A stretch of DNA of 64,000 bases from contig CM097885.1 of NCBI GenBank assembly GCA_044892525.1, positions 215,884,001 to 215,948,000 of the forward strand. Direction: 5' to 3'. The notes beneath the pieces were generated by a model that worked only from the letters and a program-made list of their open reading frames with translations, ran no database searches and was not told the DNA's origin. Positions 3,793-26,456 of this stretch are shown one piece after another. This DNA is from Schmidtea polychroa. Its lineage: Eukaryota. Each line of letters opens with the position of its first letter. The first letter of the stretch is position 1. The position numbers were made by a program, and so were the translations under genes.

Positions 3793-4379
3793 TGTTGGGC
3801 TAGAACTGATTTCTAAACCCAAAGTTAGAAAGGGGACGAAATATGTCAGTACACAAGACGCATACCCAGCATTAAGTTTACTTAAATAAAAATATATAAA
3901 AACACCAAGTAAACAATGATAACAGAGAGATAATATACCCAAAAATAAAACATCTGAATTAAAAATAAAATAAAACACGAGCAAGAAGTAGCACACGAAA
4001 ACTTACTCAAATATAACCGAAAGACATAAAACAACATAAACAAATTCGAATAAAGGCGATCAGTAAAAATTAAAAATAAAATTAAAGAAAATATCCATAA
4101 AATCTTACGTAAAAAAATTATATCAAAATTTTGTATAAAAATCCAGAATAATCCATAAAAAATTGCAAAATCCATCATGGCCGCCAAACGACCCAATAAA
4201 ATTTATAAAAAATAAATATTTTAGTTTAAAATATAAAAATTTTAGAAAAGAATTCACAAAAAATAATTTAAAAATAAGAAATAGATTAAATTTAGCATGG
4301 AATGTTCTGGAAATGCCCAAATCCATCATGGAGGTAAATTTAATAAAAATAATTCAAAAATAAAAACTAAAATTCTTAC

Positions 4380-5500
4380 GGAAAAATCGCCCTCTAAATT
4401 GATTAAAATTAAAAATCGAATGTTCTAGAATTAAAATAATTCGAATTTGTTATATTACATCAATGCACGCATGCATACTAGCACACCAAAATTAGGGTGA
4501 TAAACTAACACATTTCGTCACTTTTCAATTTTTACTCTTATGCCAAAATTTTGATTTTGATTTTTCTGAGATTGTAAGTAAGAACAATTTCATGGTGAAT
4601 TATAAATTATTATTATTTAAACCTCGTTTTCATTTTTTTCATTTAGTTACAAAAGTGTTGGAGTGAGATCGTCGGTTATCATTGATTTTGAAGCGAGATC
4701 CCACTCAATCCTAAACCTGTGCACCTTTTTCGTCGTTGGATCCAAAACCCTCGACGCTGCAGGTCCATGACCTGGCTAATATGCAAGATTGAATTGGGGT
4801 AGTTGGAGGTCGTACTGACTTCATGATATAAGCCACGGAGTTCATCGATAAATTTTCTCTGGAGCGGCGGGGCTCGATGAGCTCAATGGAACTAGGTAAT
4901 TTAGTCAAAGTTACGGTGCTTAAAAAATAAAAATTTAAAAATAAAAACAAAAATTATGGCACAAAAATTGCCATTAAAAATATCAAAATCGCGAAATAGA
5001 AAATTTTGGAATAAAAAGAATTCGAGTTTGTTTTAACGCATCACGTGTACAAAATAGGTATATATACCGACACGTTTCAGTCACAATTTAATCACTTTAT
5101 GCCAAATTTATTTTTCTGGTGAAATTCTTTGAATTATTAGTAGGAACTATTTTATTTGCCTTATAATATATTTTTTGTTGGGTTGTATATTTCATATTAT
5201 TTTTAACATTTTGTTTATTTTATTTCTTTTGAATCGTTGGATGTAAGAGTGATTAGAGTCGTACCGATTGTCTACGCCTCTGATCAGCCTTGCATTCAAC
5301 CAAGCTATAAATCTACAACAACATGCGGACATGCACTATCCTTATTATAGTTTTTTTTGTTCGGTCATCGGAGGTCGTCCACTTCATGGTTCTGCCATGG
5401 AGTTGTGTCGATAAAACCCTTCTGCTATGGCTCCAGCTATTTATTATCGGTCGACAACGGTATGTTTTGACTCCACATCACAGTAACGCTTGTCGTAGCG
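4380..5500 (+). repeat. Diverged tandem duplication of a ~550-bp module inside element A1
   Basis: GGAGGTCGT-ACTTCATG-GCCAYGGAGTT-TCGATAAA occurs at ~4806 and ~5370, and ATGCCAAA-ending blocks at ~4540 and ~5100. Copy A2 has only one such module. Confidence 0.65.
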
Positions 5501-6373
5501 GTCACAGTGGGGCCGTGTAAGCAAGCACTCTTCCCGACTTCAAATGCAGTACACAATTAAAATCAACACTAAAAATTTCACACACTACTTAACACTAGGA
5601 TCATAATTGAGTAGATCTCAGACCCAAACTGAACACATGTAGTCGGTTGAACATCATTGAACAGCTCGGTTATACCTATACGTTTGTCGAACCTCATTGA
5701 TATATATAATTCTTAATGTTAATATAAAAATTTTCTCAGAAGTAAACGCCATAATCCTCGTAAAGAAGTTCGACAAGCGAACATAATAAAATGAAAATGC
5801 TCAATTATTTTCTAAATATACAACCTTAATTCGCAAAACGGAAATCATTATTTCTGAATAACTAACAGTTCTGAAAGTAACATATATTACCCTTAAACAT
5901 AAAAATTGTTAATATGTAGGATCCCTGAATCACAAAGTACAACAAAAAATTCAAAACTATGATTTGTAAATACGTATTGTCATTAAATCATAAAATATGT
6001 CTTAATATTATATTTATAATTGTGAACTATTCATAAATCATAACTTAAAATTTTTCTTTTGAAAATTATTCTATAAATATTAAATTATAAACTATAATTT
6101 CGTATTGCACTGAAAAATCTAATTTTTGTCTTATATAAGATATAATGTATAAAAGTATTGTAATACTCAAGAACAAATATAATTTCATATTACACTTAAA
6201 TTATCATCTATGAATATTAAATTATAAAATACATCTCAGTATTACCCTTAAAAAATAAGGTGTTATGGTATAGTAGTATTAAATGATAACTTTATTAAAA
6301 TATGGAATACATCTTTAGAAGTATAATGTACAAATGTACCATCGTTCGGAATTATAGGAGAATTTTATAATTT

Positions 6374-6780
6374 ACATAAATGCCTAAATTAGGAATTAAA
6401 AGTTTTATACTAAAAATACCAATTATAATTTATAATTTTATACTACCTCAATGTATAATTTATTTATCACGCATAAATGCCTAAATTGGAAATTAAAAAT
6501 TTTGTATTAAGAATATAAACTCTAAATCCTAACTTTATATTACCCCAACGTATAATTCATAAGTTTCTAGACTGATTGTAATACATAAATGCCTAAATTA
6601 GAAATTAAAAGTTTTATATTAAAAATACAAATTATAATTTATAATTTTATACTACCTCAATGCATAATTTATTTATAATACATAAATGCCTAAATTAGGA
6701 ATTAACAATTTCATATCAGGAATATAAAATATAAACTATAACCTTATATTGCCTCAACGTGTAGTTTATAAATACCTAGA
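6374..6780 (+). repeat. Four ~100-110 bp tandem units in alternating A/B order (a ~210-bp dimer twice)
   Basis: CATAAATGCCTAAATT recurs at ~6374, 6472, 6583 and 6680. Units 1 and 3 share TATACTACCTCAATG; units 2 and 4 share TATATT-CC-CAACG. Confidence 0.85.
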
Positions 6781-8039
6781 TTATCAGGTAGAATTATACC
6801 CTTCACTTCAATTAGTAATTTAGCCTAAGCGATAATTTGGTTAATATGTGACTTATAAAGGCCCAAAGCATCACTGTAATTGATATATTACCTAAATGTA
6901 CAAATCCAGAAAAGCCTAGATCATAAACTATAAATTATATTTTCCCTAAATTCTGAACTATAAACTATAATTTTATAATTTATATATAAAAGCTATAAAC
7001 TATAATGTTACATTTTGTAAATAACCTATAATTATAAACCGTAAATTTTTGCACTTTGCTGGGATGTATGACTTATAGACATCTACATCTTAAACTATGA
7101 TTTCATATTCCATATAGTTATCTAATTGGCAAAGGACCAAATTCTAAATCCTAAGTTTATATTTCGTATATAACTGATAAATGACGAATGTATAAAATGT
7201 AAAGTTGCGCATGCGAAAATAGCTAGGTTATAAATAACCCATGCGCCAAAATTATGGAGTATAATGACAAACATAAAGAAGCGCGCCCAACCTTTAGATT
7301 GGAAACCGCAGCGGCATGAAGCTTGACGATAATTTAATTGAAACTAATTTAACCTCCAGTCGAAAGAGAAGATAATATTTAACATTTATTTAATCACATC
7401 GAAGTTCTAGTGGGCTGAGTCAGGATTGCCGAGAGAAGTTCATTGTAGATTTGAGTCTTGCGTGCTCCAGCTATTGCCGCTCGTTGCTGGGAATTGCCAA
7501 TCAGATTGGCAGCAGTGGATGAATTCCTGAACTTACGAATTTACTAATTTGGAATTTACAGTCTAACTTACTTCGAAGGATCCAGATGGATTGCAACACA
7601 GAGGTGTTGGGTCTGAAAGTCTAATATACCAGAATAAACTAAATTTATCAGAAAAAGTTTTTGATATTTAAAAGCATTACAATTAAATGTATTTAAAATT
7701 TAATATTCAAAACCATTGTAGTTTACTTTAAATTTGACCTTAAAATTTTAATCATAATTATTACAGTAAAACACCGTAAAATAGGCTGAGGACATTAATT
7801 AAGGTAGTTAATTGTTTATCCCCGGTTAAGTTTAATTTAAAGTACAGCATAAATTTGAGTTTGTCATTCAAGTGTAATTTAATTTAACCCAATTAGAATT
7901 AAGAATATTTGGAGTTTGATTTACGTTTTAAAGAATTTCCCTTTGTGCAGTCGTATATTTGACTGAGAGCAGTCGAATAGGAATAAACATTTTCTTTTGA
8001 ATTGTGTCAACCTTATTGACTATTATTACCCAATTAGAT

Positions 8040-8404
8040 ATGTCACACTCGGAAATTTTTAGCGATGAGGAAGCCGATAGACAGCTGATCACGCGGCTCC
8101 GGACCCGGTACATCTGGTACCGAATTCATGATTGGAACCGGGGGTTGGACCTAGATAATTATGGACCGGTCATCCGAAGTGGCCCAGAGCCCGATGCCCG
8201 GCGTGGGTGAAAGCAGAGCCCACTAACAATTTGCTACGAGAAGCCCGCGATCGAGCGGCTATCGAGGTAGAAGCTGCCCAGATGCGGCTGAAGAGAATCG
8301 AGCTCCAGCTCAGAGCCGAGGCAGAGGGAGTAAACCTCGAAGAGCTGGAAGAGACAGATGCCCCTCCACGAAAACGAGGGAGGCCCCGTAAGAACCCTGC
8401 CTAA
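8040..8404 (+). CDS. Small LTR-borne ORF with WYRIHDW motif, coiled coil and C-terminal AT-hook (one probable frameshift near 8172)
   Basis: ORFs 8004-8210 and 8207-8404 join if 1 nt is restored (the homologue at 22684 reads GTG ATC CCG AAG where this copy has GTC ATC CGA AG). The C-terminus PRKRGRPRK is a canonical AT-hook. Confidence 0.65.
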
Positions 8405-8699
8405 CTCGTCGGCAGTGGTAACTTGACCAAAACTATTTGACTAATCTGATCTAATGATATTGTGTTGCGTTTGACTTCATTAGTAGCTAGTATGACAAAT
8501 TGTAGAAATTTTTTTTTATTATAATTTTTATATTATAGTTTGTCGTGTGTCTTCATCATATAATAAATTATCTTTCTGTTATTACATTTAAGCCTTATAG
8601 CTTATGGGGTGTCTTCAGGGTTGAGGTGACCCTCCCTATCTTTCATCTATTAATTTTATGCAATTAATCGAATCACCTTTACGCTCATGAAAGCTGGCT

Positions 8700-9167
8700 A
8701 TGGAATTTTATTATTGTCTTCATTCAGTGTACAAATTACTCGAAAATCTACGCAAGGACCGCGAACAGGCCCAGCAACAAGTCGAAGACCTTCGAAGTCG
8801 GGTCGAGAAGCTCAAAGTCAAGTGCCGAGAACTCGAAGGTACTTGGTTCAGTCCGGCTGAGATGAAGAAACGAACAACACACATCTCACAACTCCAGACC
8901 CAGGCGGAGCAGAATCAACTCGAAATCCGAACACTGAAGATACAAGTGCACTCGCTCGAGAGCAAACTGAAAGAAAGGTTCATCCAGGACACTCTCCGAG
9001 AGCAGATTCGCCCACTTCCCGTGGAGCTGGCCAAGATATACCCACCAGCCCAGGCAAGCAAGCCGAAACGCAAACGGCTAGGGCGGAATACACGAGAAAA
9101 ATTGAAAAGGGCCTGGCTGGCCGAGCAAGCAAAAGCGAAAGAGCCTGAAGCCACTCCACAATCCTGA
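8700..9167 (+). CDS. LEGTWFSP coiled-coil protein, subtype A, open frame
   Basis: 155-aa ORF with heptad-rich KLLENLRKDREQAQQQ...LEGTWFSPAEMKKR...QLQTQ and a basic tail KPKRKRLGR. An AG acceptor near 8727 suggests an upstream exon; AATAAA at ~9228. Confidence 0.75.
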   Translation: MEFYYCLHSVYKLLENLRKDREQAQQQVEDLRSRVEKLKVKCRELEGTWFSPAEMKKRTTHISQLQTQAEQNQLEIRTLKIQVHSLESKLKERFIQDTLREQIRPLPVELAKIYPPAQASKPKRKRLGRNTREKLKRAWLAEQAKAKEPEATPQS

Positions 9168-9344
9168 GGAATGTTTGAGAGTGCGACCCCTCCTGGGTAA
9201 AACAGACATTGTAATAGTGTAGTGTTTAAATAAATGATTTTCATTGTCTGATGGATAGGTGATTAAACTTTATGATTGTCCAGAACAAGACGGTCGACAG
9301 AAAAGCGTTTGGGAAAACAATCTCGATAAGGGACCGAAATAAAT

Positions 9345-9550
9345 CGGACACATGCCTTCTATCGGCCGTCCGTGAACCCATAGAGTACTCGACAATTACA
9401 GTGCCTTGGCGCGCTCACTTTTTGCGAGTACTCAACCCCTTGGTACAGTACCAACGTTGATTACTCAACGGGTACCAAGCGGAAAATAACGTTGTATTCT
9501 GGGTTACGCTGGTAACAGCACTTAAACATTCAACCACCAGTAACCCACCA
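9345..9550 (+). ncRNA. Structured RNA/cis element at the 3' end of element A1 (four helices)
   Basis: Helices CGGAC/GTCCG, GAGTACTCG/CGAGTACTC, CTTGGTAC/GTACCAAG and GGGTTAC/GTAACCC with a GCTG-GTAA-CAGC hairpin. Compensatory changes are seen in copies at 23732-23949 and 15270-15530. Confidence 0.7.
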
Positions 9551-9570
9551 GTATTCTGAAAACGGCAACA

Positions 9571-10990
9571 TTGGTGTCAGCATTGTGGATCATAAAAGTA
9601 GTCACATTCAGATGAAGATACCGATTTTCTTCGACAGCGTGGTAGCGTGGTTCCAACAAGTTGATGCTGCACTCGAGCTGTCATCAATGAAAAATGAAAA
9701 TATTTTCATCTCCTCACCAGTCTACCACCAAGAATCCTCGAAGAATACTCGGATATATTGGACCCACAAATCAAACTGCCGTATTCGACGTTAAATAATC
9801 AGGGAATCAAAAGAATCGACAACAGAGGCTGCCAAAACATTGCTGCAGAAACAAGAAATTGGTGACTGAAAACCAAGTCAATTGCTCAGGGAACTCAAGC
9901 GCAGTTACAATCAAATGGAACCGAACGGAAACCCACGAACGAGCCAGATCCTGAGATTTCAATTTATAAATTGCATGCCAGTTCACATATAACACTTATT
10001 AGTGTCAAAGGAAGCGGATATTGATGAGCTGGCAAACATCGCAAAACACATGGGCATCAAAAATCATGTTATATCTCAGGTGGAAAATCGACAACAAGCC
10101 GAAATCCAGTATCAACAGACAATAAAAAATCTCCAAAATCAAATCAATGCTATAAAATCAAATAACAAATCCAGTCAATACCACAACCTGTCAACAATGA
10201 ATCCTATATGCTATTTCCACAGAAGATTTGGAAAAAATGCCGGAAAATGCGAACAGCTATGTCATTGGACTGAGTCATCATATGGGGGAAAAGACCAAGG
10301 ATCTCTTTGATGTCGACTACAGAGATCCGGGACAATACTCAGCAGTCGACAAAAATCCAAGTCATATTCACTGTGCTAATTTTTTAGGGCGACAGAACAT
10401 ACAATTTCCTTGTGGATTCTGGAGAGGATGTCAGCGTCATCCAAGCGAATGCATTTACTCCTGATTTTAGAGATGTGCCTATTAAACTTGTTTCAGCCAA
10501 TAGCTGCAACATCAAAACGTATAGTTCGAAGACTCCAAATTTTAGGATTTCAAACATAGAGCAGAACTTTACATAGAGCTGAATGGTGGCAGATGTAAAC
10601 CACCCGATTCTAGAAGAAGACTTTCTAGAAAGTCATAAGTTTGTGATTGACTGTAGAAATGCTAAGATCTACATTTCTGAAAATACGACAGAAGTCAGAG
10701 AAAGGACTGCTCCTGAAAAAATCAACTCAGTTCTTCTTGAGCACGCATTGGAGATAGAGACAGCATGCCCACCAATTGCACAATCAGCTAGACGCCTAAG
10801 CGGGAAGTATTTAGAAATGGTTGAAAAGAAATTTAATTTAATAAGTCAGACAAATACCCATTACCGAGAATAACTGATATGCTTGATCAACTGGGAAGGA
10901 ACCAAATATTGTCAACCATCGACTTAGAGAAGGTATATCATCAAATCCCCATCTCAAAAACTGATATACCAAAAACGGCAATAATCAGCA
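9571..10990 (+). mobile_element. Decayed Ty3/Gypsy internal fragment: PBS, gag, protease, partial RT
   Basis: PBS-like TTGGTGTCAG at 9571; gag MKIPIFFDSVVAWFQQVDAALEL and CYFHRRFGKNAGKCEQLC; protease FLVDSGEDVSVI; RT STIDLEKVYHQIPISKTDIPKTAII. Confidence 0.9.
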
Positions 10991-11145
10991 ATAATAGAAT
11001 GACGCATGAAATAACGAAAAATGCAATAAATAATCAGGAAATTAATAAAACAAATAAAAAATATAATAAAAATAAAGAAAATTAAGGAAAATAACCAAAA
11101 AACAGGAAAAAGTAAACTAAATTAGAAAATAAGCGGTACTCAATT

Positions 11146-11281
11146 CTGATTGGTCTGCATAAACGAAAAATTCATATATAAGCAGACAGTAAACTTATTA
11201 TGGTTACTGTTAAAACTAAAAATTCACAGGTAGGAAAATGATAAAAATTCTCTACTGTTAAAACTAAAAATTCACAGGTAC
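11146..11281 (+). promoter_or_regulatory. Pol II promoter-like module: inverted CCAAT box, TATA box, 28-bp direct repeats
   Basis: CTGATTGGTC (11146), TATATAAGC (11175), then TACTGTTAAAACTAAAAATTCACAGGTA twice. The same arrangement occurs on the minus strand at 23980-24108. Confidence 0.6.
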
Positions 11282-14160
11282 TCAACCATCAAGACACCAG
11301 GACAAAATCAGACTATTAGGAAGCAGAAGATATTCAGAGACAATTCCAGATTTAAAGTCATAGCCATTAATTTAACTTTTCGACTCAGCCTTTGGAATCA
11401 CTAGTTCAAGATAGTTGGTAAGAGCGTGTTTTAGTTTTATAGATTGTATTAATGGATAATAATGTTAGAATATTTATTATATTAAATTAAAAGGTTTTAA
11501 TACGATTTTCTTCATTTGATCTCCTCTCAATAATACTGAATAGTAATGTTTAAATTTAAACATGAATGATAACTAAATATTTGTAATGTACAATTATATT
11601 TTGAATTTTTATTTTATTATAAATTTACAATGAGGAACGTGGAGTTGAGAAGATCCATACCATGGTGTGAGGAGCCTTCGGGAGCTCAGCCGATGGGTGT
11701 GGACCTTTTCAATCACGCAGCTGACGTGGGCCGTAATGTGGGGGCTTCCTCACGGGTCCGTCGCTGAAGGTCAGAAAATGCTGCAACGAACTGTCGAGAG
11801 TGAGGTGGAAGGTAATTCGAATTCTAGAAGGTGGGAATAATCGTAATTTGACAAGTGACTGAGGTGGCTACAAACTTTCTTCCTACTAGAGATCCATAAT
11901 TCTCAGACGCTACACTTTGAAACTGCTCGTTTGTCACCTTAAGAAATCTAAGTCGTTCACCAATATCGACAACTTCACCATCATCTATCCACAAATCACT
12001 TTTACGTCAAAATTTAGTCCACTTTGGTCTTAGATAATGGATTAGCTATTAAGATACTTACTCTTGCATCTTACGACAGCATAGTAAATATGAAAGAAAA
12101 ATTATTAACTGTATTTAATTAATGAGACAAAAATTTCGTAAAATTCCTTTATTTTCCTTTTTTAAATAATTTTGAATTGCCATTGGCTGGAACATGAAAG
12201 ATCATTTGCTTGAATCCACCCCCGATAAATTGTCGCCTTTGCATAGTTCGATAGAACCATCCATAAAGTGATACATTCCAACATGAGAAACGAGAGAGGT
12301 TGCATACCATACCAAAAAAATCCAATTTCCAAGGTTGATGAGAATAAACATGAGGCAGCATAATGGCTGAATAACCTAACTCCAAACATCAGAATAATCC
12401 ATGTTTTAGTGACAGAGACAGATATGAGCATACACCGTCCAAACGTGCGTAATCGGGTCATGGATAGACAGCAAATCTAGATAACGTAATAACGCTCATG
12501 ACAAATCACATATAGCAATACACACTGGAACCTACGCATGCCTCGTTTCACGTCTGTTAGTACACCTAACCGCGAAATATAACATTATCTATAATCTAAA
12601 AAAAAAATCAATAAATATATATTATAGGAACACACAAACTTACCTGTGTGTAGAAATTTAATGCCGCGAAATTTAACATATTTATTATAGGAATCTAAAA
12701 AGTGAGAGAAAATAATTAAGCATACAAGCACAGCACACATAATGAAAAATACATACAAAATTAAGTAAAGTGTTTTTCATGCGAAATTCAGATTGATTAA
12801 CATATAATTAACATATCAATATTTTAAAATTATTTAAAAAATTATGTACAAAAAAACTTTTGAATCAGATTCCGACTGCTCTACGTTGAGCTTTAGGGAA
12901 AAAGAAGTAAATACATCGTAAGATTTAATTATAAAATAATTTAGAATATAAAATTTCTTTAGATTTACAGATATTGAAGAAGATCCTTCGACATCTTTGA
13001 ATTTGCAGGAAAAACATCGCAAATCGTAAATTTTAATAAATTATTTTAACAAATTAATATTTTCATAGAATTACAGAAATAGACAAAATTCGAAAGAAGA
13101 TTACAAAAACTTAAAAAATATTTTATCCATTCTTTACTAAATGTCTTTAAAAAATAAATGTTTAGTGATTACTTTACATATTTATAATTATAAAAATATC
13201 TAACTTACATTTTTACGAAATAAATCCAAATAAATCCAAATAAATCCAAATAAAATACCATAAAATTCCTAAAAAACACCTGAAATTTAATTATCAATGT
13301 TATATATTATCAATATTATAAATGCTGACTAACAGTAATATTTAAGAACTTGAATAATGATCTCATAATTATATAAAATCAAAATTCAAGTCCTAAAAAT
13401 TACTTCAATGCAAAAACTTACCTTTAAACGATTTTTGGAAAATTAAATAAATGAAATTAAGTTAGCATTGTCATATAATTGGTGACTCACCTCAGGTGGT
13501 GTGCACACCAACTTATATTATAGACAATGTTAACTTTCGCGGTTAGGTGTATCATCCTCTATTCGACACTGCAGTAGACGAACTCGCTGGTTGATAACTG
13601 TAGTGAGAAAATTAATTCTGGTGCATGCACCTGGCGATTCCGAATTTTCTAATCAGATTGCTGATAGCTAAGCCGGCAGAGATATCAATGCAGCTGATGG
13701 TCTATAAGATAGATCCACATACATCAAGCACGAATTTTAGATTTCTCAACATGAATCCTGATGAATTTTAACTAAGATCAGTTAGATTGCGCTAGTGATT
13801 AGCCTTGTGTAATATATAATGCTGAACAGTAAAATAAAGGATTATAGTTTTCAGTAATTTCAATTTATTAAACTAATTTGTTAGTTTTGCTCATTCTCAA
13901 ATGCGACGGATATTCCTGAGGAAAATTAGAACACTACCACAATCATATAACCATAAGATTTGTTTTCAGCGACGAGTTATCACATCAAGTTAAGGGGACG
14001 TCATATATGACCAACCAGTCTTATAAGTAAATGATGTACAGATGGTTATCGTACACTGGGGAATTCCTACGGCCGCCGACCTATTTGGTAGCTAAACTCA
14101 TGAATGTAAAGTAAGAGAATTGTGGTGACTGATAAATGGTTATGCCGAACGTACGGCTGA

Positions 14161-14961
14161 ATGGATTTAGTCGAATTATGTTTACCTTTATTTTTCTTTA
14201 CAGTCACCAATATGTTACCACGCACGAAATCGCCCCTCAAACCCTGCTTCTCCTGTGCAGACAAAAACGTCGTAATCAAAGATTTACAGACCCAGATCGG
14301 TCGATACAAAAAGAGAATCGACGATCTGGAAGGTACATGGTTTAGCCCAGTACAAATGAAAGAGGTACAGAAGAAGCTGTACCGTAGTGAGCATTGCCGT
14401 GATGTCCTGATCAATGAAAGCAGATCCCAACGCAGTTTGATAAAAGAGCAGTCAGAGGCTCTTCATAAAGTTTATTTACAGGCGGCTACCACCCGGAAGA
14501 TCGTGAGTATCCCTATTAGTGAAGCGGACAATATCTTTCCCGTCCACCATGTCCCTTCGTTCAGTTCACCGCCTTCATCCAAGAAGACTTGTCGTGAGTG
14601 CGTGGAAGCCGACCTCTCTCTCAGGCCATCTAATATGCCTATTACCGGAACTAGTAAGGTGTTACCATCGTCTACGACCACCTCTGTAGCGTCATCGAAT
14701 ACTATGATCATCTCGAAACCCAAGCGTCGCCAACTGTCGAGGGAGGAACGCAAAAAGAAGCAACGTGAACGGGCAGTTGCTAAACAAAATAAACCAGCTT
14801 CGGACAACACAACTACTCTCGACGATCCCCCGGTAACGATCGATCTGACAGTAGGGATCCCAGGGCGAATCATCTCTGCCGCTGGTGTGACTTGGGAGGA
14901 AAATGCCTCCGAGTTCTTCGATTTAGACGAATTGCTGGCTGACACGGAATGGGAGAAATGA
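14161..14961 (+). CDS. LEGTWFSP coiled-coil protein, subtype B (CxxC N-terminus, Ser/Thr/Pro-rich and basic region, acidic tail)
   Basis: 266-aa ORF. The likely true start is the ATG at 14212 just after a ttacag acceptor. Motifs KPCFSCADKN, LEGTWFSPVQMK, KPKRRQLSREERKKKQR and FFDLDELLADTEWEK. Confidence 0.75.
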   Translation: MDLVELCLPLFFFTVTNMLPRTKSPLKPCFSCADKNVVIKDLQTQIGRYKKRIDDLEGTWFSPVQMKEVQKKLYRSEHCRDVLINESRSQRSLIKEQSEALHKVYLQAATTRKIVSIPISEADNIFPVHHVPSFSSPPSSKKTCRECVEADLSLRPSNMPITGTSKVLPSSTTTSVASSNTMIISKPKRRQLSREERKKKQRERAVAKQNKPASDNTTTLDDPPVTIDLTVGIPGRIISAAGVTWEENASEFFDLDELLADTEWEK

Positions 14962-15269
14962 AAGTCTCGCCGTGGAATAATCTTGCTGTGTGTGAATTGT
15001 CGAACTGAACCCCCTCTACCTTATCTCTTCCTTTGTCTGTTATCTACCAAATGGCGCGTGTTGTATATAATTTATCTGTATATTGTATTATGGTGAGAGA
15101 ATAAATCCAATGTTTGATTGTCAATTTTGTTTTTGAATCAATTATTTCTTTCGGTAAGAAGCTCGGTGTAGATTTTATGAATAGAGTAAACGTTTTTGGA
15201 AGTCCAACAAGTAATAGTCGATTAGCATCCAATTCAAAGAAATGCGGGGTTTGATGATGCGGTCAGGCG

Positions 15270-15530
15270 TAAGTCCTTCCATCGGCAGTCAGGGAAAGGA
15301 AGTCGAGGCCTCAGTAAGGAGTAGTCCTAAGGCAGGGGCTCACCTACTTACTGGCGTCTCGCCGACACAGTACAGTTCCAACGTGAAGAAATTCGCGGGT
15401 GCTGTGTTGAAGTATAGGTTGTGCGGGGTTCTGCTCAGGGTTGAGGTCATATCTAACGTAAATGAAATGGACACCCATCTCCTAGGCGAAAGTGCGAAAT
15501 AGTTGGAATCAACCGAGCACTACCCCAGCA
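15270..15530 (+). ncRNA. Third, highly diverged copy of the structured 3' module
   Basis: CCTTCCATCGGCAGTC loop motif; CAGTAAG/CTTACTG enclosing GCTCAC; ACACAGTAC/GTGCTGTGT enclosing AGTTCCAAC plus a GAAA hairpin; GGGGT..TGCTC/GAGCA..ACCCC at the terminus. Confidence 0.6.
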
Positions 15531-18500
15531 AGATTATTTAAATATATTTATTTATTTTAAAACAAAATTATTGATTTGGGAATTCCCCTATCTCTAAATT
15601 TTGCTTCAACGGCTCTAGACTCCAATAAAATTACAGAAAAACACTAAAATCTATTTTTAGTAAAAATACACCCTTACTTCAACGAGGGAATGTCGATATA
15701 AAATTATAGAACAAAACGAACTCCTATAGTACCGACCAATCACCATCGTCGGCATGATTACGCTGGATAAGTTGTATACCCCCCCCCCCTTTCAATATCA
15801 AAAGGAAACAGAACAATAGTCACTAATTTAAGCCCCTCCCTTTTCTGGATCTGCTTCTCTCACGATGATATCACCTTCCTTTTTCTACAAACCTTATTAG
15901 TCATATTATTAAACCTGAGTAAAATGAGTGATTGGGCTGTAGGAATAAAAAAAACCCTTGAATGGACATAATCTTGCATGATCGACGGTAAATCAAACAC
16001 AGGATAAACAGCACATAAATAAACTTTTAAAAACCATAAATTGGAAAAATTCAAAGTCAAATACAAATCTTTATTGGCACCGCAGGAGTTGACTACTTTT
16101 TGCTCAGCTCGTTGAGTTTGGGGTGGAAAGATCATCAGATTTGATCATTACTGCAAGGACAGGCTGCCTGGAATCACCTACTACGCTTATACTCACCTGC
16201 AAAACGAAAATAATCAATATGAAACATATGAAACATACTTTCACATATAAGATTAACGACGTCAATGAGAGGGTGACCTCCTTCTTCTTTTGGGGGTGGT
16301 TTGTAGAACAAACCAGACACTTAATATCAGAATTTGCGATCACCATTTATTAACAATCGTGCCAATTTTTTTTGCTAGAACCATTAAACTGCCGCTAATC
16401 ATAGTAGCATGAATCCGAAAGATCATAATAATTCCCCTTCTGTTTAGTGGAACCCTGTAAAATTTTGGTTCATAGTCTGCATCTAAAACTGAATTAATGA
16501 AATTTTTCTATTTATTTTATTTATATAATATAAATGATTTAATAATATATTACACCAAACACCACTGAGAACCATTTCCTATAGTATAACAAAAAAAATC
16601 AATAATCTTACATTATAGAAACATACATACTTACTTTGATTTCACGTTGATGTTCTCATTTATAGCTCAATGAGATACATCTTATATTATAGAAATCTGA
16701 AAAGTGTAAGAAAGATTAAAAACTGAACACAAACGCTACACATATTAAAAAACACATACAAACCTTTGATTCGTAGAAATGTAACGATGAGATACGTTTC
16801 TATAATAATTCTATTTTAGACAATTTTTAGAAAAAAAGATCGTTGAAAATTTTTAAAATTATATTTTAATGATGTAATACACTAGAATTAATACCGGCAA
16901 CGCGTGTAGTTATGGTTATTTTCGTCATGGCAATTCTGACTTCAGATTTTGGATCTGTACATCTGGCAATTATTTTCGGATTTATCTGTCGGAGCGATAA
17001 ATCTTCCTCATTTACAGTTACACTACCTAATCCATATTAGAGAGTATTGGCCTTCTAACTGCTGGATTTTCTTACTGGAATTGTTTACCGGTTTCTAGTC
17101 GTGATAAAATCATCAAATGCCAAGGTACGACATCGATTAATATCAGAAGTGGTGTGTGTGAGGTATCGTTGATATTCGTGTAATGACGGCTTATCGTATC
17201 CTAGACAGTAAATATTTATGATTTGTTTACTAGGAAATCAGATTTTTTGACAGACAAGACAATATCTACGGAGACTGTCTGGATTGATCGGTCGAATTTT
17301 CCATCGATTAAACGAAAATTATCTGATGTGGGAAATTCCCGTGGACTTTGCCTTATCAAGATAAATCGATTTGCTGGAACAAAGTAAGTCGACGCTACTT
17401 TTATACGTGACGAATTTAAAGGTGCTCCTCTTTTGCAGGACTATTGAAGTGAAAGGTGGTCTGCTGATGACGCTGTGAATATACAACTACGGGTTTCCTG
17501 ACGATGGCGAGTAGAGAAGGCGAAGCTTCGCTCCTGGCGATTAACGATAATTGAACTTGATGGAATTATGATTATCATCATGGAATTTCACCTAAATCTC
17601 TCATCCGATCACGACTAAATGAGGACCTCTGGGTTCTCACCTCCCTCTTACTATTCCGACTCGGAGTTTATCCGCTCCCCACGACACACCCGAGGATCAT
17701 AGGTATTGCTACCCACCATCCTCGCATCATCATAAGGGACAGATCAACTCAAATGAATATGACAAAAATTGGAAATATCAAAAAAAAAATTTCATACCAC
17801 AAATGATCGATCAACACAATTAAATATAAATAAATTACCTGGCAACCATGCCATTTGGATTTTCAATCATGATACCCTTGGCCAACTTCCCATCCATCCA
17901 TCAAACCAAACATAATTATTTCATATTCAAGTCCGGCGAGAGTTCTAACTCCTGTTACGTTCGATAACCGCCAACACCACCCAATCATCGTTTTCATACT
18001 CTCGGTTGCTAAACATTCTCCGCAACATTGTGATTGTCATTCATTCCATGTTTCTATTCTTCATTGGATCTTTCCCATGTCTTCCAAATAATGTTGGCAT
18101 TCCTCGGTATCACGATTGAACTCCCAGAAATAAGTCCTTGGTATATAAAATATAAAAATTTATTAAATTAAATATTCAAATTTCTACTATATATCTTCGT
18201 TATATCAAATAAATCTACCATGACAAATAATTACAAATCATACCCAAAGTCTCGAAATCGATTTAGTAGAGCTGAATTGGCTATGAGTTATTTCGTAATA
18301 TTCCCGTAATCGTTTGGATTTCCAAAAACAAATCTTTTCTTCGTAATTGATTCTGATGAACAGGTAGTTATTTCTTTTAGTTATTTCTTTCTAGTCGAGT
18401 GAGTTTACAGTGTCGTGATATCAGTTGTTGGGCTAGAACTGATTTCTAGACCCAAACTTCTAATTGTGACTGAAATGTGTAGGTACACAACACGCAAAAA

Positions 18501-21500
18501 GCAAAAAGTATAGTTAAATATTAAAAAAAAATATAAATAAACAATAATAATTAAAAGAGAAACAACAAAAAATGTAAACACAGAAATTAAATAAAATTAT
18601 ACAAAAGCAAGAAGTTATGCAAAATCTAACTCAAAAATAACCAAATAAACATAGAGTTACAAAAAACAAACTCGAATAACTTAAAAGACGGTAAAAACAG
18701 TAAGAAATTCCAGAAAAACCCAGAACATTCCATAAAAATGGCGATGACCATCATAAAAGCTACCTTGAACAATGAAAGTTAGAAAAATAAATAAATTAGT
18801 ATTAAAAATAAAAAAATCTTAAAAAGAAATTCATAAAACATCAGTTAAAATAAAAATTAAATTAAAAGTAATATGGAATGTTCTGGAACCGTTCCAAATC
18901 CATCATGGACGTGAAATTAACGAAAAATAATTAAAAAATAAAAATTTAAAAATAAAAATTATGACGCAAAAATCGCCATTAAAAATATCAAAATTACAAA
19001 ATAGAAAATTCTGGAATAAAAAGAATTCGAGTTTGTTTTAATGCATCAATACATACACGTGTACAAAATAGGTATATATACCGACGCATTTTAGTCACAA
19101 TTTAATCTTTTTGTATGCCAAAAATTTTCATCGAAAATTCAAGTGAAACCAAAAGTAAGGACCGTTGATTATATTATTTTAATTGACATTGTGTTATTAT
19201 GTCCATTATATTAATTAATTTTTGTCTTTTTGTCACATTTTATTTTGCTATTATGTAACAAAAGTGACCAGCGTCGTCGTGAACGGGTTGTATCCACGAC
19301 GCTGATCAGCCTTGTTTCTAACTAACTGCATAAATTCGGGTCTACGACCCTACATGCATAAAAATTTCAATTTTTTTTTAACCGGAGGTCGCCACGAACA
19401 AATGGTTTCTAACCAGGAGTAGGGCGGGTAAATCCATCCCGGTAGTTGGCATAGTCATAGGGACTATGCGGACGAAATAAAATTTGGGATAGTAATCGCG
19501 GGAAACATAGTACAATAAGGCCTATCGTACCGTATTCAGTTGAGTCGGGAAAGTAGGAAAATTTTAATTAATTGACTTTTCGGTAAATGACATATCCAAA
19601 ATAAACACTCAACTATTCTATAGGAAATATATCACTAGGAATACCTAAACGGGAAATATCCCAGACTTAAATTATCACAAAAGTTCTCAAGTTGTCGGTT
19701 AATTGCACCAAATTATTCAAATGTTTAATACTTTGGATATCGAATATTATTAATATACTCTAATTGGTATTACCTGTAATTATATTTAATCAGAAATTTA
19801 ATAATCAAGAACCCGAATCTAGTGTAATTACCCAGTTTATGATACCTTAATTTTGACGAAATTGATTCCCTTAAAAGTACTTTGAATGAGTACTCTACAA
19901 TGTAGCTTCATAAAAATATTGATATCATGAAAGCCCTTTTATCTCTGGTAAACAAAATTCTTCAATTTTTCTAAAATGAAAATCTCTATCATATTGTATA
20001 GTACCTTATCGATCATGTCGTAGAAGAATCTGAAACTGTTATGCTTTTAAATCATCTCTTAATGAATATGAAAAGATTGAGTCCAAACCCACCCACGATT
20101 TTACATATTAATGTCTAGACTATTGGGTCAATGAATACAAATTTTTTAGGCTAGATTGTCGAAAATATATTTTATAAAGTTATTGGTGCCTATATTATTT
20201 GATAATGATTTTAAATCTATACGAACCAAACTTGTGCTTCATATAATTATAAATTAACATTGATATTATGTAGTTAGCATATTTCGAATCGATATTATTT
20301 AAAAATGTATTTCAGGAATTTATGTCTATACCAATTGTTAACCTTGTATTAGATAAAAGATTTTCTACATATACCTACTAATATCAACATCATCTGATTA
20401 TTTTAGAAATGTATATATTAGTTGATTAAAAAGAATCTGCCCCATCCAAAGGACGTTCTATAAATGTATACCCGGGTGGCCATATTGTTTAGTTAATAGA
20501 GATTAATTATTAAACCATACCATCTAGAATTAGGTTATAGGAATTTATATATTAACATCTATATTAATTTGACTAATTATAAAATGACTTCTTGAATTAT
20601 TTCATGAAAATTTTATGTTTACTTGCATATATCTATATTAAAGTCAAGCTTATATAAAAACTTCGAAATTTTTATGCCATAACATGCCGTACCTTCTCAA
20701 ATTAATATTTGACTATCCTGTAAATATATTCAACTTATATTATTTCTATGAAATAAATTTAGAGAATTTTTCTCAATTGACCCCCTTCAAACCATGTGGT
20801 CATTACTAGTTACTCACAGATTCTAGTTTAGCTTGTTTTTTTAAATATATTGTATTTCATGTTAAAGAGAAATTTTTTTTTATAATTTTCACCAATGACC
20901 CCCCCTTCTCCCGGTTCATACCGTCGTTAATGACTGCCTAGTCATGCTAATTTGGGTTATATTCAGAAAAATCACTCATAATTCATTTCATAATAATTTC
21001 ACCATTTTTATGATTGACCCCAGGCTCTAATCTTTATAATTATAAATCTACATTAACATTTAATCCTCATTTAATACTATTTAGATTTTATTCATGAATA
21101 ATTAACACAATTAAATTTATTTAATAAAGAAAATTGGATCACAGGATATTACAGAGAACTCAATTAATTTCTTCCTATTTTTATCCCTTAATGACATCAT
21201 CGATCTAACATCCCCTTCTACCCTACTTATTAACTATATAACTTACTCCAACCAATTTATCGATTTCTTAAAACGTTACTATTAATAGAAAATTTCAAAA
21301 CCGATATTATCGATTTCCTTTTCCTCATAGTAAAATTTGACCAATAACACCGCTTCTATTAACAACCCTGCAAATCCCGGGTTACCCTCATCGAACCGAC
21401 TCTAGTTGACCGAATGGACGACACATACTCTCTCGCAAACGAGCCAATCGCTATCGACCATGTCAGTAGGAACTCCAACCCTCCTAGAAAACTTATCTCA

Positions 21501-22683
21501 CTCGTGCGCATTCAACCCCTGTCCCAGAAGTAGATCCAAAGTATGTCGGAAAAGGCAAAGGACCTTTCCCCAGGTTTGACGGCCCAACCTAAGATAGGTA
21601 CCCACATGATCATGGACGAGGGATAATAAGCAACAAAATGTATTATACTTCAAAGCGTTAGTTACTTAAATTCAAATGAAATGAGGGTAGAATCACTTAA
21701 TAATTATTACTAGTTAATTAAATTCAACAGAAACTAAACCATTATATTCAACCAAAATTATAAACCTGATTGGAAAAATTCAGTCCAGCCACTGTACAAG
21801 TCTTACCGAGGAGAGCAGAGCCTCTCTAAAAACTCCCCTCGGGTTCAAATTATTAACCTAAATTTCCCCTGCATGTACAAACATAGATCCAAAATATTGA
21901 GATAATTGCAAATTTCCAACTGGATACCGGACAAATTAAGTAGTAAGTTCTGGATTCCCATCAGACAGCCGAAGTTTTTGAAAAATTGTCCAAACAAATT
22001 TTGTGATTAGTTAAAATTCACGAGGAATATATTTCTGAAATTAAACGAATTTAGAAATCTGAAGATTAATTACCCATCCCATTGAAATGACGATGAAGCT
22101 GCTTACAACCCCCACGGATGAGAATTGCTAGGGGCCGAATATACTATTGGCACGTAGTAATATCCCTCCCGTGGTGGATCCTAGCAGCATAGTTTTCCTT
22201 TTGTAATGATTTTTTTTTAAATAAATTATTTTTAAATAATGGTTAAACATTACATCAACAATTTAATATTTTTGACTCAGTTAAACAACAGTAAATTGAG
22301 AATAAAAAATTAAAGATAGAAATTTTGTAGTTCATTTACTAATTTTAATTTATCAACTCTTAACGTATCAAATCTAAACTTAGTAGTACTTAAATTACAT
22401 ATATATGAATTTAGCTAAGTTAACAATTATATATGGTCAAATTCTTAAACTGCTAATTATCGAATAAATCCCCTTGAGTTCATTCGAAGAGTCAAATCGG
22501 GTAACTGATTCGCAACTTAAACCCATCTTAATCACAAAGGGCATTGTCTGTTGACTTGATGTGTGTTACATTTGAGGTTGGAATATAATATTACGTATGA
22601 ACGTCCCTGGTTAATACGAACCCAAATGGGTGAACGAAGGTCAGTTATGAAATATTTTAATATTTCTCTTCATCATTACAATC

Positions 22684-22947
22684 ATGTCCAACACCGAACC
22701 AAGGAGCGTACAGGAAGATCACTCGGCAACCGACTCAAGCCTCGGAATTACCTGCAAGGAGGCAGACGAAGCCGTTCGATTGAGGTAGGACGCAGAACTC
22801 GCCCGGCTAAGGTCTAGATGGATCTGGTATAAGATCCATGGTTGGACCTACCAGAACGTAGTACCGGTGATCCCGAAGGTGGAACTGTACATCAATTATA
22901 CCTCATTGGCTTTGAGCGACGCATTCGACGATGCGTGTATTGATTGA
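22684..22947 (+). pseudogene. Homologue of the 8040 ORF (WYKIHGW motif), one in-frame stop
   Basis: MSNTEP...RLR*DAELARLRSRWIWYKIHGWTYQNVVPVIPKV aligns with LITRLRTRYIWYRIHDW...PVI. Confidence 0.7.
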
Positions 22948-23166
22948 TTTTTGATAATGTTCTGTAGCGTTGACTATTATTACTATTGACTATAATTTTC
23001 CTTAACGTTGACAGTCCCATAAGGTTTGGTATGATTCATAGAACTCGGTTTAGGTGCGCGTAGAGGAGGGCTGCGACGAGGAGATCACATTCATTTAGTA
23101 TTGATGCTCATAATAATGCTCGACACTCGATGCTGACGTGAAAATTACTAATGTTGTCTTGTTTTA

Positions 23167-23649
23167 GTGCTAAAACTCCTGGAAGAGATGCGAGCAGATA
23201 GAGAGCGGGCGCAGCAACAGGCAGAGGAATACCGGGCCAAACTAGCACGAGTCAAGGCCCATTGCCGGAATTTCGAATGTACCTGGTTCCCGCCAGCAGA
23301 AATGAAAAAACGGATGAAGCTGATCACTCAACTGCAACTCCAGAGTGCACAGGATCAGGTTGAGTTACGGGCCCTCCGCCTGAAAGTGAAGGAGCTAGAG
23401 ATCAAGGTACACCAACAGGACCTTGATCGAGAGGTCATTTCCAAGATCCGACCCATGAGTGAGCTACTCCACATACCGAAGGAGTGCACCCCACCAATAA
23501 TTCCGAGGAAGAAGATCCGGCCGGGTAAAGCGGCGCGGGCGAGAATAAGACAAGCCAGCCAGGCCCAATTAACGCTTCATTCTGCTGGGTCAGAGTCTAC
23601 TCCGAAAGAATCGACTAGGACACTATATATTCTGATCATGTTTTCCTAA
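23167..23649 (+). CDS. LEGTWFSP-family coiled-coil protein, subtype A, open frame
   Basis: 160-aa ORF with FECTWFPPAEMKKR, QLQLQSAQDQVELRALRLKVKELE and a basic tail PRKKIRPGK. AATAAA overlaps the stop codon. Confidence 0.75.
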   Translation: MLKLLEEMRADRERAQQQAEEYRAKLARVKAHCRNFECTWFPPAEMKKRMKLITQLQLQSAQDQVELRALRLKVKELEIKVHQQDLDREVISKIRPMSELLHIPKECTPPIIPRKKIRPGKAARARIRQASQAQLTLHSAGSESTPKESTRTLYILIMFS

Positions 23650-23731
23650 TAAATTTTTACTGGTACGTCCATATCTGGGCATTTTGATTTTTCCCATAAC
23701 GTTAACTGTCGCAACGGGGACGAAAAGAAAC

Positions 23732-23949
23732 CGGACATAGGCCTTCTATCGGCAGTCCGTGAACCCCAGTGGGTGCTAGACAATTATAGTATGTTAAAAA
23801 TGCTCACTTTTTGCTAGTACCCAAACCCTTGATACAGTACCAACGTTGATTGCTCAACGGGTATCAAGTGGTCAGCTATAAATTGTATTCTGGGTTACGC
23901 TGGAAACAGCATGAGGAGGTAGAGATTTCGCGGTACCTGTAACCCACCA
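23732..23949 (+). ncRNA. Structured 3' module of element A2
   Basis: GGGTGCTAG/CTAGTACCC, CTTGATAC/GTATCAAG, GGGTTAC/GTAACCC and GCTG-GAAA-CAGC; paired positions co-vary relative to copy A1. Confidence 0.7.
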
Positions 23950-24826
23950 CAGTATTGAGTCTGTGGATATTCCTGTGGTGATCTGTAGTGATTTTTGCAG
24001 AGTGGTCAAATGATTATGAACTAAAAAATTTTTACCTGTAGTGATTTTTGCAGAATGGTAATTAAATGAATTGTGAGTTTGCTTATATATTAATTTTGGT
24101 CCAATCAGGACGGAGTTGTGGTGATTTTTAATTAATTATTGTTTTAATAAATTTTATTTATCATTGCTTTATTATTATTGTTATTTTATTGTTTTATTAC
24201 AGATTTATATTTTCTATATTTTTTTTCGTAGATTTTCATTGTCTCTTATAGGTGTAGTAGTTTGTTTTAATTCTTCGTACAAGTTTTGTTAAAAATTTAT
24301 TTATTTTAAGTTTGGATTTGGTTTTTTCGTTTCATTTTCCTAAATTTGATTTTATTACATTATTTTCCCCTTTTGTTAGTTACACGTAGTTAATACCCTA
24401 TTTCCTATAACTATTTTTATTTCCAATGATTTTTAAATTTCAATTGTTTTGTTTTTCTTTTATTGTTTATTTCGGTTTCCCCTGATGAATTTTTCTTTAA
24501 TTTATAGTTATTTTGATTTAATTCGGCTAGGGTTTCCTTTACTTGTCTATTTTACTTTTACTTGGGTTTTTTTCTCATACCCGATTCAGCTCCATCTTGT
24601 ATTGCAACTTCGAGGTTTAGCCCAACGGCATTATGGTCATTATCCATCTTATTAGTACGCGAATTATAGTCAGTAGGGTCACTATCATCATCACTGATCT
24701 TGGTTAACTCCTCCTGTAATCACCTTCCTATATAAATTTTTCTTCTCGCAAGGAAATTGTTATTTCTGACTATTTGAAATGGGCTATTACTTTTCTTTCA
24801 GCCTCATTTTTATATTTATAGCAAAC

Positions 24827-25217
24827 ATGGCCCATAAAAGTAATTATATAAAACCCTGCTTCTCGTGTTCAGACAAGAACATGGTCATACGAACACAACA
24901 AGAAGAAATCGCACTGTTAAAGAAGAAGCTCGATCTTCTGGAGGGCACCTGATTCATCCTCGTCCAGAATGAATCCAACCAGAAAGCGGTGAAATTGGAG
25001 CCCTGCTGTAACAATCTCCTCGAAGAAAATCAACCCCAACGTACCTAGATACGGGAGCAGTCCCAGGCTCTGTTTCATGCGTACACCAAGAACTAGCTCG
25101 AGGCTCGGATCACGAGGCTGCCTTAGGCCGAAAAATGTCAAATCACTTTTTCACCCGTCTATCGCCAACATTACTAATACGGTAAAACAAATCAAAATAT
25201 TCCAGATAAACCCAACA
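24827..25217 (+). pseudogene. Degenerate subtype-B LEGTWF gene followed by family terminus AAACCCAACA
   Basis: MAHKSNYIKPCFSCSDKNMVI...LDLLEGT*F...IREQSQALFHAY aligns with the 14212 ORF; terminal motif at 25208-25217. Confidence 0.75.
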
Positions 25218-25607
25218 AAGGTAATATATTTTTGACAAAAATCTTCTTTTAGATGGAGCTCATATAATAGATCATTTAAAATTATTTTAGTATTTACCAA
25301 AAAACAATCTTAATACCAATGAAGCGAGTTCTTTTGCTTAAATCACTTATAACAAAATTTCTTATAACAAAATTTATATTACTAAAAACATCAATAATTA
25401 ATTCTAAGAAAAATTTTCAGATTTGAAATAAAATATTATTCCAAATTATTACATTTTTGATTATTTGTTTAAACCTAATATTTTAATTTCAAATTTTATT
25501 AAGAGTTAAAAATTAATAAATTATAGAAATATTGTTTACTGTATTATTAAACTATTTTTGTAAATAAATTATTAAATAATTATTAAAATATACTACAATT
25601 TTAGATA

Positions 25608-26456
25608 ATGTTGACAATATCATCAAAGGTTTCTTTAATCGGCATGTTATGTGGAATTTTCCAAATTGCTATTGTGAAATTTTTTTATGTTTTCGGAGTT
25701 CAAAATTACATTCCAATTGCAGTACCTGTAATGTTTATTATATCATCGTATTATTTTATTTCTCACTTTCAAAGCAACACTGACAATTTTCAGAAATTGA
25801 ACTTTTTCTGTGCATTTTTACTAGGAAGCATAACATCAATGGCTATTTTTCTTATGCTCAATCTGCCAAATCATTCTATTTTTGCGATATATATCATACA
25901 GTTGTGTTTTTTCCACTGGTCCGAGTTTTTTTTGTCGTCTCTGAGTAATCCTAATGGACTTAAAATCGATCTTTATATGCTTAATCATTCTACAGAATAT
26001 AAAATTGCTTTATTATTAAGTGTTTTTGAATATTGGACAGAAAAAATTTATTTTCCGGAGGCTTTTGAAAAGCTCAGATGGCTGTCTTATTCAGGCTTGC
26101 TTATTAGTATCCTTGGTGAATTGTTGAGGAAAATATCTTTATGGACAGCTGGTCAAAATTTCAATCATTACGTGGAATTTAGAAAACGTGATGACCATGT
26201 ATTAGTTCGAAATGGAGTTTATAATTGGTTTCGACATCCTTCTTATGTTGGATGGTTCTACTTCAGCGTAGGAACTCAAGTGGCCTTATTAAATCCAATC
26301 TGCTTGATTGGTTATACCGTAGCTTCATGGTCATTTTTTTACAGTCGAATTTATGAAGAAGAGCAATGTTTACTTCGTTTTTTTGGTGAAGATTATTTGA
26401 ATTACCAAGAAGAAGTTGGTACAGGATTGCCTTTTATTCGAGGTTTTCGTAAATGA
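25608..26456 (+). CDS. ICMT: Protein-S-isoprenylcysteine O-methyltransferase (Ste14/ICMT), intronless
   Basis: 282-aa multi-TM ORF with FFHWSEF, LLNHS-like MLNHSTEY, TAGQNFNH, HVLVRNGVYNWFRHPSYVGWFY and RIYEEE..L..FFGEDY...TGLPFI. Confidence 0.97.
   Translation: MLTISSKVSLIGMLCGIFQIAIVKFFYVFGVQNYIPIAVPVMFIISSYYFISHFQSNTDNFQKLNFFCAFLLGSITSMAIFLMLNLPNHSIFAIYIIQLCFFHWSEFFLSSLSNPNGLKIDLYMLNHSTEYKIALLLSVFEYWTEKIYFPEAFEKLRWLSYSGLLISILGELLRKISLWTAGQNFNHYVEFRKRDDHVLVRNGVYNWFRHPSYVGWFYFSVGTQVALLNPICLIGYTVASWSFFYSRIYEEEQCLLRFFGEDYLNYQEEVGTGLPFIRGFRK

Follow-up and report, generated by a model that had tools for sequence, protein, structure and literature searches.

The LTRs of giant retrotransposons in the Schmidtea polychroa genome end in a structured RNA composed of a three-hairpin core (~140 nt) and a terminal helix. 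Three diverged copies lie in the window, the 64,000-nt stretch of DNA analyzed here, and each of them forms the 3' end of an LTR belonging to a giant gypsy element of the Burro/GYPSM1 type. With a probability of roughly 0.55, the fold is a U5-PBS platform that starts reverse transcription, like the U5 stems of HIV and avian retroviruses but larger. Structured U5-PBS regions are already known; new here are the larger size, the modular build and the lack of a match in Rfam. No description of the fold, or of the missing polypurine tract (PPT) reported below, was found in the literature searched, primary Burro papers aside.

The window is AT-rich animal DNA, and the genome searched comprises 781 Mb. 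The first copy ends a solo LTR of family 1 (Burro1/GYPSM1-like; 3793..9550, plus strand) that has TG...CA ends, is flanked by CTAT/GTAT, a 4-bp duplication with one mismatch, and shares 72% identity across 4.9 kb with the LTR of L091-L094, a whole element. The second (15266..15530, plus strand) has the same core with a longer terminal helix and ends a family-2 LTR for which no 5' start is recognizable within the window. The third (23733-23949) ends a family-3 solo LTR (18426..23949, plus strand) with a perfect 4-bp target duplication, CAGT. The initial annotation had placed the structure at the 3' terminus of giant elements; it does end LTRs, but those in the window are solo or partial LTRs, not whole elements. 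With copy 1 as the query, 2,633 candidate matches were found genome-wide, of which 40 were scored; many matches were paired at a spacing of 30.5 kb.

The Burro/GYPSM1 assignment follows size and domain order as published. According to the accessible text of that description, planarian Burro/GYPSM1 elements exceed 30 kb, have LTRs of ~5 kb and encode Gag, MATH, fusion protein, protease, RT, RNase H, integrase and ankyrin, in this order, along with BIR and RING accessory ORFs (PMC6431247). A whole element of 35.8 kb, corresponding to one of the match pairs noted above, agrees with the published size (>30 kb, ~5-kb LTRs): its 5.17-kb LTRs are 99.8% alike, it is bounded by a 4-bp target duplication, and its Pfam matches follow this entire order from Gag to ankyrin, the fusion protein being a viral one. 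Its Gag has zinc knuckles, Pfam matches indicate that RING, TRAF and BIR proteins are also encoded, and a stop codon lies, in that copy, between the Gag frame and a 4,250-codon frame. Compared with the described Burro elements, several families here are shorter (LTRs of 1.65 to 4.2 kb) and one is Gag-only. LTR RNA structure, PBS type, the spacer and a missing PPT go unmentioned in the accessible text of the published description (PMC6431247).

The core begins with P1 (9346..9371, plus strand), a short irregular hairpin with a T-loop-like cap (9357-9363), in which the two top C-G pairs are invariant and the loop reads UUCYA followed by 1 or 2 variable nucleotides. The pyrimidine at position 4 differs from the tRNA-type T-loop, given as UUCRA in the accessible part of the source (10.1101/2022.12.26.521914). 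The UUCYA letters are forced by the search pattern and hold in 16/16 LTR ends found through the PBS; the T-loop call is made at the level of sequence. The linker J1/2 (9372..9382, plus strand) holds GAACCC, a PAS-like complement of the tRNA-Pro T arm that is present in 13/36 representatives and absent from the family of copy 2. P2 (9383..9433, plus strand; 15305-15360 and 23771-23822, plus strand, in copies 2 and 3) is a long helix with covariation, in which CAC (9416-9418) forms a C-loop-like bulge beneath the AGT/GCT pairs. The motif GCTCAC had been described as conserved and unpaired; GCT pairs with AGT (in 36, 35 and 36 of the 36 aligned rows), so only CAC is left unpaired. The bulge conforms, as a matter of sequence pattern, to a C-loop (U-CAC-Y opposite R-Y-A, with one bulged pyrimidine), a motif that the accessible text of PMC4551918 gives as N-C-A-(A/C)-N opposite N-(0-2 bulged nt)-N. 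Unlike the examples listed there, which have A, most families carry G at the corresponding position (PMC4551918).

P3 (9437..9481, plus strand; 15364-15408 and 23826-23870, plus strand, in copies 2 and 3) contains an 8x1 internal loop (9447-9454 facing G9471) with a covarying helix on either side. The first half of this loop varies and its end is a near-invariant CCAA. In the motif AGT(A/T)CCAAC, initially listed as conserved and unpaired, the first letters vary, and the last C pairs with G in 32/36 rows. A three-motif pattern built on the core yielded 5,363 genome matches, which are pattern matches, not copy numbers, against 0 for the reversed control. CC of the P3 loop is intact in ~96% of these 5,363 matches, with the first C missing in 114 and the second in 88. 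Among 30 loci read out of the 114, a loop variant that recurred in 7 had a single shared flank and represents one duplicated solo LTR; the 88 second-position variants are known as listed matches. The apical loops of P2 and P3 vary freely. P4 (9491..9550, plus strand) is the terminal helix, with family-specific inserts; in copy 1, its strands are 9500-9507/9540-9547 (plus strand). A GNRA hairpin noted at the outset is present in the families of copies 1 and 3 and absent from copy 2 and other families.

That three diverged copies share one fold was borne out: all the helices named in the initial annotation were found in their places, the sequence confirmed two compensatory pairs with a G-U and the GTAA/GAAA swap, and a covariance model recovered exactly the three copies in the window (107 to 141 bits). 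When single copies were folded, the z-scores were -3.6 and -2.9, and only -1.5 for copy 2, where 11/200 shuffles did as well. For comparative analysis, 168 cores (109 distinct) were reduced to 36 representatives of <90% identity and aligned with MAFFT on sequence only. RNAalifold predicted 29 pairs from this alignment, 25 of them with changes on both sides. A 45-pair structure, which combines the RNAalifold prediction with hand additions and derives from the same alignment on which it was later tested, pairs in 88.5% of 1,577 cells across the 36 rows, compared with 68.7% in shuffles and 37 to 42% when partners are slid, and double-change cells number 322 versus 118.6 in shuffles. The motif columns are forced by the search pattern; the same motifs occur in 16/16 LTR ends found through the PBS.

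A 66-row set (mean identity, 63%) was then formed from the 36 rows and 30 more, taken from 75 further cores that were mostly loci chosen as loop variants. Across 33 tree-independent tip pairs drawn from these rows and at least 6 families, pairing is preserved in 68/113 double changes, where the null gives 8.3 +/- 2.7 and reached this value in 0/2000 trials; P2a, P2b, P3a and P3b each give 0/1000, and P1, with only 3 events (91/1000), does not show significant covariation in these tip pairs. The covariation that had been claimed is well supported on independent tip pairs and barely significant in a strict, tree-aware all-against-all test, in which a single pair reached E<0.05 with 36 rows and none did with 66. 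In that test on 66 rows, the top five pairs all fall within the structure, and 14/45 proposed pairs pass when tested alone. The bare significance of the strict test, together with the fact that the last 6 to 7 nt are the integrase end, could be taken to mean that selection acts on minus-strand DNA or on DNA sites for integrase or transcription factors, or that the pairing is due to chance. We regard this as very improbable, given the 68 compensatory events where 8.3 are expected, the better folding of the plus strand than of the minus strand in 16/18 rows, and the far greater number of G-U than A-C appositions (199 versus 60).

An Rfam search at E up to 10, covering positions 8000-25000 of the window, one family-5 stretch and 11 divergent loci, placed nothing over the fold, in line with the initial failure to match it to hammerhead, twister or HDV. 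Invariant unpaired residues and tertiary modules are what a new self-cleaving ribozyme would display, and P1 has what we take to be a superficial resemblance to HDV P3/L3. A ribozyme, which had been suggested at first, is nevertheless extremely unlikely: no Rfam ribozyme model scores (hammerhead, HDV-like, twister or others), there is no space for an HDV P2 strand or P1.1, no covarying pseudoknot appears among the top pairs, and a cut at this place would presumably part the PBS from the upstream repeat and so prevent strand transfer. A hammerhead-like sequence, CTGATGAG, upstream of some family-2 copies is not conserved. When viral and metagenome contigs were scanned with the pattern, 1 and 15 matches, respectively, came up, all 16 without the fold; the best reached 14.4 bits, compared with 99 to 141 for true copies, and they look like chance matches in prokaryotic DNA. 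No true relatives outside the S. polychroa genome were found among these viral and metagenome contigs.

The fold makes up the last 200 to 270 nt of every LTR and is present at the end of both LTRs of the 35.8-kb element. At 5' LTRs, a 7- to 8-nt spacer (e.g., L091:7138-7145) separates the terminal CA from the PBS, which matches the tRNA-Pro(UGG) genes of the same genome over 18 to 23 nt in 7/7 whole elements; the match to tRNA-Pro(CGG), the other isoacceptor compared, is 17 nt in these 7/7 elements. Collecting LTR ends by the PBS alone gave the same association: 16/16 distinct ends carry the core motifs, and among distinct 300-mers 5' of the PBS, the core is found in 26/26 and the CCAAC loop in 23/26. 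For 5' LTRs, pairing between the base of P4 and the spacer is predicted with a mean probability of 0.90 (at least 0.8 in 17/20), compared with 0.53 (at least 0.8 in 31/144) for the genomic flanks of solo and 3' LTRs. The P4 partner strand and the spacer change together between families, and their helix leaves 2 to 3 U before the PBS. Because the spacer exists only there, this pairing can form only in RNA that reads through the 5' LTR. As in a retroviral-type U5-PBS region, the fold adjoins a host-tRNA PBS, and a predicted helix closes a few nucleotides before it. The early suggestion of an R-U5 leader is supported, with RT initiation as the likely role: the fold ends every LTR 5' of a tRNA-Pro PBS, and its last helix needs a spacer found only at the 5' LTR.

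A candidate poly(A) signal, AATAAA, lies 5' of the fold at 9229..9234 (plus strand), with counterparts at 15100 and 23648. The three window copies have AATAAA 85 to 170 nt upstream of the core, two further families at 152 and 167 nt, and three elements at 485 to 664 nt; in one element, none occurs within 700 nt. As the signal is mostly upstream but at a variable distance, a location of the fold in U5, that is, 3' of the poly(A) site and not in R, is likely only. The shorter distances would also suit a role in RNA processing or export, with the fold, possibly in R, controlling poly(A) read-through at the 5' LTR or the export or translation of unspliced RNA. The HTLV-1 Rex element and the R-U5 post-transcriptional control elements are parallels, a read-through of ~30 kb would need some control, and a splice-donor-like GTAAG is found within P1 in 25/36 representatives. 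We consider such a role rather unlikely, since the families of copies 1 and 3 lack GTAAG and the AATAAA of several elements is distant or lacking, as given above. Moreover, the core cannot itself discriminate between the 5' and 3' LTRs, because it is identical in both.

Several further observations concern the LTR ends and the PBS. The usual LTR-PBS spacer is 0 to 3 nt, and integrase processing would need to remove one of 7 to 8 nt. In three loci (L109, L126 and L132), an LTR and PBS are followed immediately by unrelated DNA, possibly representing integrated plus-strand intermediates; two of the three carry an A at position 18 of the PBS, the base expected from tRNA-Pro(CGG). Four PBS sites at a 15.8-kb spacing (G000:C1:39424153-39471581) form a tandem array of element pieces. 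Long tandem arrays of tRNA genes were found at 130.9 Mb of G000:C1 and 142.5 Mb of C3, comprising tRNA-Pro(UGG), with 1,555 pattern matches genome-wide, and tRNA-Pro(CGG) alternating with tRNA-Arg(CCU). Contigs of run X2 end in poly(A) at L091:7447-7510, an A-rich stretch 300 to 370 nt 3' of the PBS, where internal priming and a real site are indistinguishable. In one family-3 copy (L083, near 1470), telomere-type repeats are joined ~15 nt upstream of P1.

What follows the LTR bears on translation. Upstream LTR ORFs would hinder scanning, and compact viral IRESs are of similar size with similar loop modules, so that an IRES for Gag or for the first internal ORF, as initially entertained, might be envisaged. 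It is a very unlikely function for this fold, with no open frame or conserved start directly 3' of it: frames running from the LTR end close within 0 to 44 codons in 7/7 elements, the first ATGs open frames of 1 to 32 codons, and the first long ORF comes 330 to 720 nt later, after at least 4 short upstream ATG frames in those elements that have such an ORF in the sequence examined. In a Gag-only element, the sole long plus-strand ORF is 8.6 kb away, and no Rfam IRES matches.

This Gag-only derivative (L273-L295-L274; G000:C1:5.73-5.75 Mb) is 15.6 kb long with 1.65-kb LTRs that are 99.9% alike, which marks it as young. It has one 877-codon Gag frame and no match to Pol or accessory proteins, and its LTR type is among the commonest in the pattern match lists. 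It retains the fold, the spacer and the PBS, which fits a cis signal served by helper proteins. Retention would be explained equally well by packaging, with P1-P3 forming a Gag- or nucleocapsid-binding domain that selects 5'-LTR read-through RNA and P4 alone involved in priming. Packaging is the foremost alternative, with the odds against it. If the fold is in U5, it would be 5'-only in read-through RNA, and its conserved letters lie in internal loops, as in protein-binding modules. It is also continuous with the spacer and PBS, which packaging leaves unexplained, and retroviral packaging signals are mostly 3' of the PBS. Dimerization, another function raised at first, finds no support, since none of the loops tested has a 6-nt palindrome in more than 1/36 rows and the apical loops are variable; packaging likewise lacks a conserved palindromic loop for this purpose. 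In Ty1, the 5' pseudoknot is a main Gag site, according to the accessible text of PMC4974528. The distance of P1-P3 from the PBS (100 to 270 nt) is greater than that of the HIV loops, which counts against an initiation platform, and these hairpins could serve packaging.

The preferred reading, an initiation platform, draws on comparison with characterized systems. HIV initiation complexes, as described in the accessible text, involve contacts of an A-rich loop with the anticodon and of the PAS with the T arm, with three unpaired nucleotides beside the PBS helix (PMC3185550). Like the U5-PBS regions of HIV-1 and HIV-2, as far as the accessible sources describe them, the fold has a helix that ends about three unpaired nucleotides before the PBS (PMC3185550; PMC5689005) and, as candidate contacts, a loop complementary to the anticodon and an upstream complement of the T arm. 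It differs from HIV in that the candidate anticodon partner is an internal loop on a separate hairpin 100 to 200 nt upstream, beside T-loop-like and C-loop-like modules, and there is no likeness in sequence or in Rfam. In Ty1 and Ty3, the joining of the RNA ends is needed for initiation, as reported in the accessible parts of the sources (PMC4974528, PMC5371799). A structured 5' end needed for initiation is likewise described, in the accessible text of PMC3681743, PMC4974528 and PMC5371799, for Ty1 (CYC5/CYC3 and the 5' pseudoknot) and Ty3 (bipartite PBS). The U5-IR stem of Tf1 and avian retroviruses is a further parallel. In contrast to Ty1 and Ty3, the PBS here is one 18- to 23-nt block, and the candidate end-joining duplex is loop-based and 7 to 9 bp long. 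The HIV-like features, the end-joining of Ty1 and Ty3 and the retention of the fold in the Gag-only element are the grounds on which the fold is read as an initiation platform.

On such a platform, P4 would close 2 to 3 unpaired U before the PBS in full-length genomic RNA and thereby fix the primer-template junction used by RT, as the U5 stem of HIV-1 does. P1-P3 would be compacted through the T-loop-like and C-loop-like modules, leaving short invariant surfaces for the replication machinery to contact. The CCAA loop could pair with UUGG of the primer anticodon loop or, alternatively, with the invariant first bases of U3, in which case the two ends of an RNA genome as long as ~32 kb would be joined. 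In some families, the GAACCC linker may additionally pair with the primer T arm.

The CCAA partner may be the primer anticodon, the U3 start or an internal contact. CCA is the codon of the primer tRNA-Pro(UGG), and CCAA complements its anticodon loop (UUGG). The energies of the candidate primer contacts were compared with those of shuffles and of a control panel of three other tRNA types and variants. For the P3 loop, 127/200 shuffles were as good, for the T-loop 157/200 and for the C-loop 192/200; for J1/2 with the T arm, only 5/200 were, with four segments tried and tRNA-Arg(CCU) scoring equally. Between the P3 loop and the U3 start, predicted pairing energies are -8.4 to -11.1 kcal/mol in 7/7 whole elements, stronger than for the PBS start (-4.2 to -6.8); within 32.7 kb, 11 sites, the U3 match among them, score equally well, and local pairing may occupy part of the U3 start. 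In the genome, 1,119 3'-LTR junctions begin with TGTTGGG, none with another base at position 3, and this start is invariant though the U5 ends vary from family to family. Many LTRs in general begin with TGTTG. No family with another primer or another loop triplet came to light, the second-position variants being covered as listed matches. Covariation cannot decide among the partners, because all families share the primer and the U3 start. Pairings between the T-loop and the linker (a pseudoknot), the T-loop and the tRNA D loop, and the C-loop and the pre-U3 motif gained no consistent support. HTLV-1 also primes with a UGG proline tRNA, a choice left unexplained in the accessible text of PMC11251516.

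T-box riboswitch-like recognition is a related idea. T-box Stem I displays the cognate codon in an internal loop, and T-boxes combine T-loop and C-loop modules, a K-turn, a double T-loop and an antiterminator. The likeness here consists of an internal loop with a codon followed by A, stacked on a helix, and of T-loop and C-loop modules in one RNA. The differences are that this is a eukaryotic retroelement, that the modules are spread over three hairpins with one T-loop, and that there is no K-turn and no antiterminator; nor did Rfam at E up to 10 place a T-box over the fold. The specifier codon of a T-box changes with the cognate tRNA, and in all families here both codon and primer are invariant. 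We put forward only tentatively that the 140-nt core is a tRNA-docking domain in which the CCA-A loop reads the anticodon and the PAS-like linker reads the T arm, and/or the loop clamps a U3 sequence ~30 kb away, such that only full-length genomes would initiate, the second strand being primed without a PPT.

The PPT is indeed missing: the last 15 nt before U3 contain 5 to 8 purines in 7/7 whole elements. Its place is taken by a conserved 7-bp hairpin 38 to 39 nt upstream and a GC-rich block (e.g., L094:2598-2632), an arrangement present at all 1,119 of the junctions noted above and without a match (0) in viral sequences. Ty3, by contrast, has a PPT. Pairing of this pre-U3 tail with the PBS, the core or the tRNA did not exceed that of shuffles (best, 16/200).

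Together, the fold and the missing PPT suggest replication signals unlike those of a textbook gypsy element at both priming steps. RNA structure models are available for very few LTR retrotransposons, and a radiation of thousands of copies offers a natural source of covariation for a compact fold absent from Rfam. It also lends itself to in vitro work, as a small system in which to ask how a ~30-kb genome positions its primer and coordinates its ends. Burro-type elements are expressed and PIWI-controlled in planarians, according to the accessible text of PMC8532177, and they are reported, second-hand, to aid regeneration (PMC13465017, accessible text).

The window and the LTRs hold additional features. 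The family-1 solo LTR encodes a basic coiled-coil ORF of 158 codons from stop to stop (8691..9167, plus strand), with relatives at 14161-14961 and 23152-23649; its Pfam coiled-coil matches are all sub-threshold. More generally, the LTRs code for one or two small proteins without a Pfam family (the window ORFs; L091:5635-6036), which are preceded by splice-acceptor-like tracts and followed by AATAAA, such that solo LTRs could express them. A mir-753-like hairpin (13339-13401) scores 61.8 bits against a cut-off of 62 and lies inside the span of the second LTR, in a region without homology to a related LTR. Transposase-like fragments occur at 28178-28911 (minus strand). A 283-codon ORF at 25605-26456 (plus strand) is membrane-enzyme-like and presumably resembles isoprenylcysteine methyltransferase. 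Finally, an element at 52300-53823 has 191-nt inverted ends around a 349-codon ORF.
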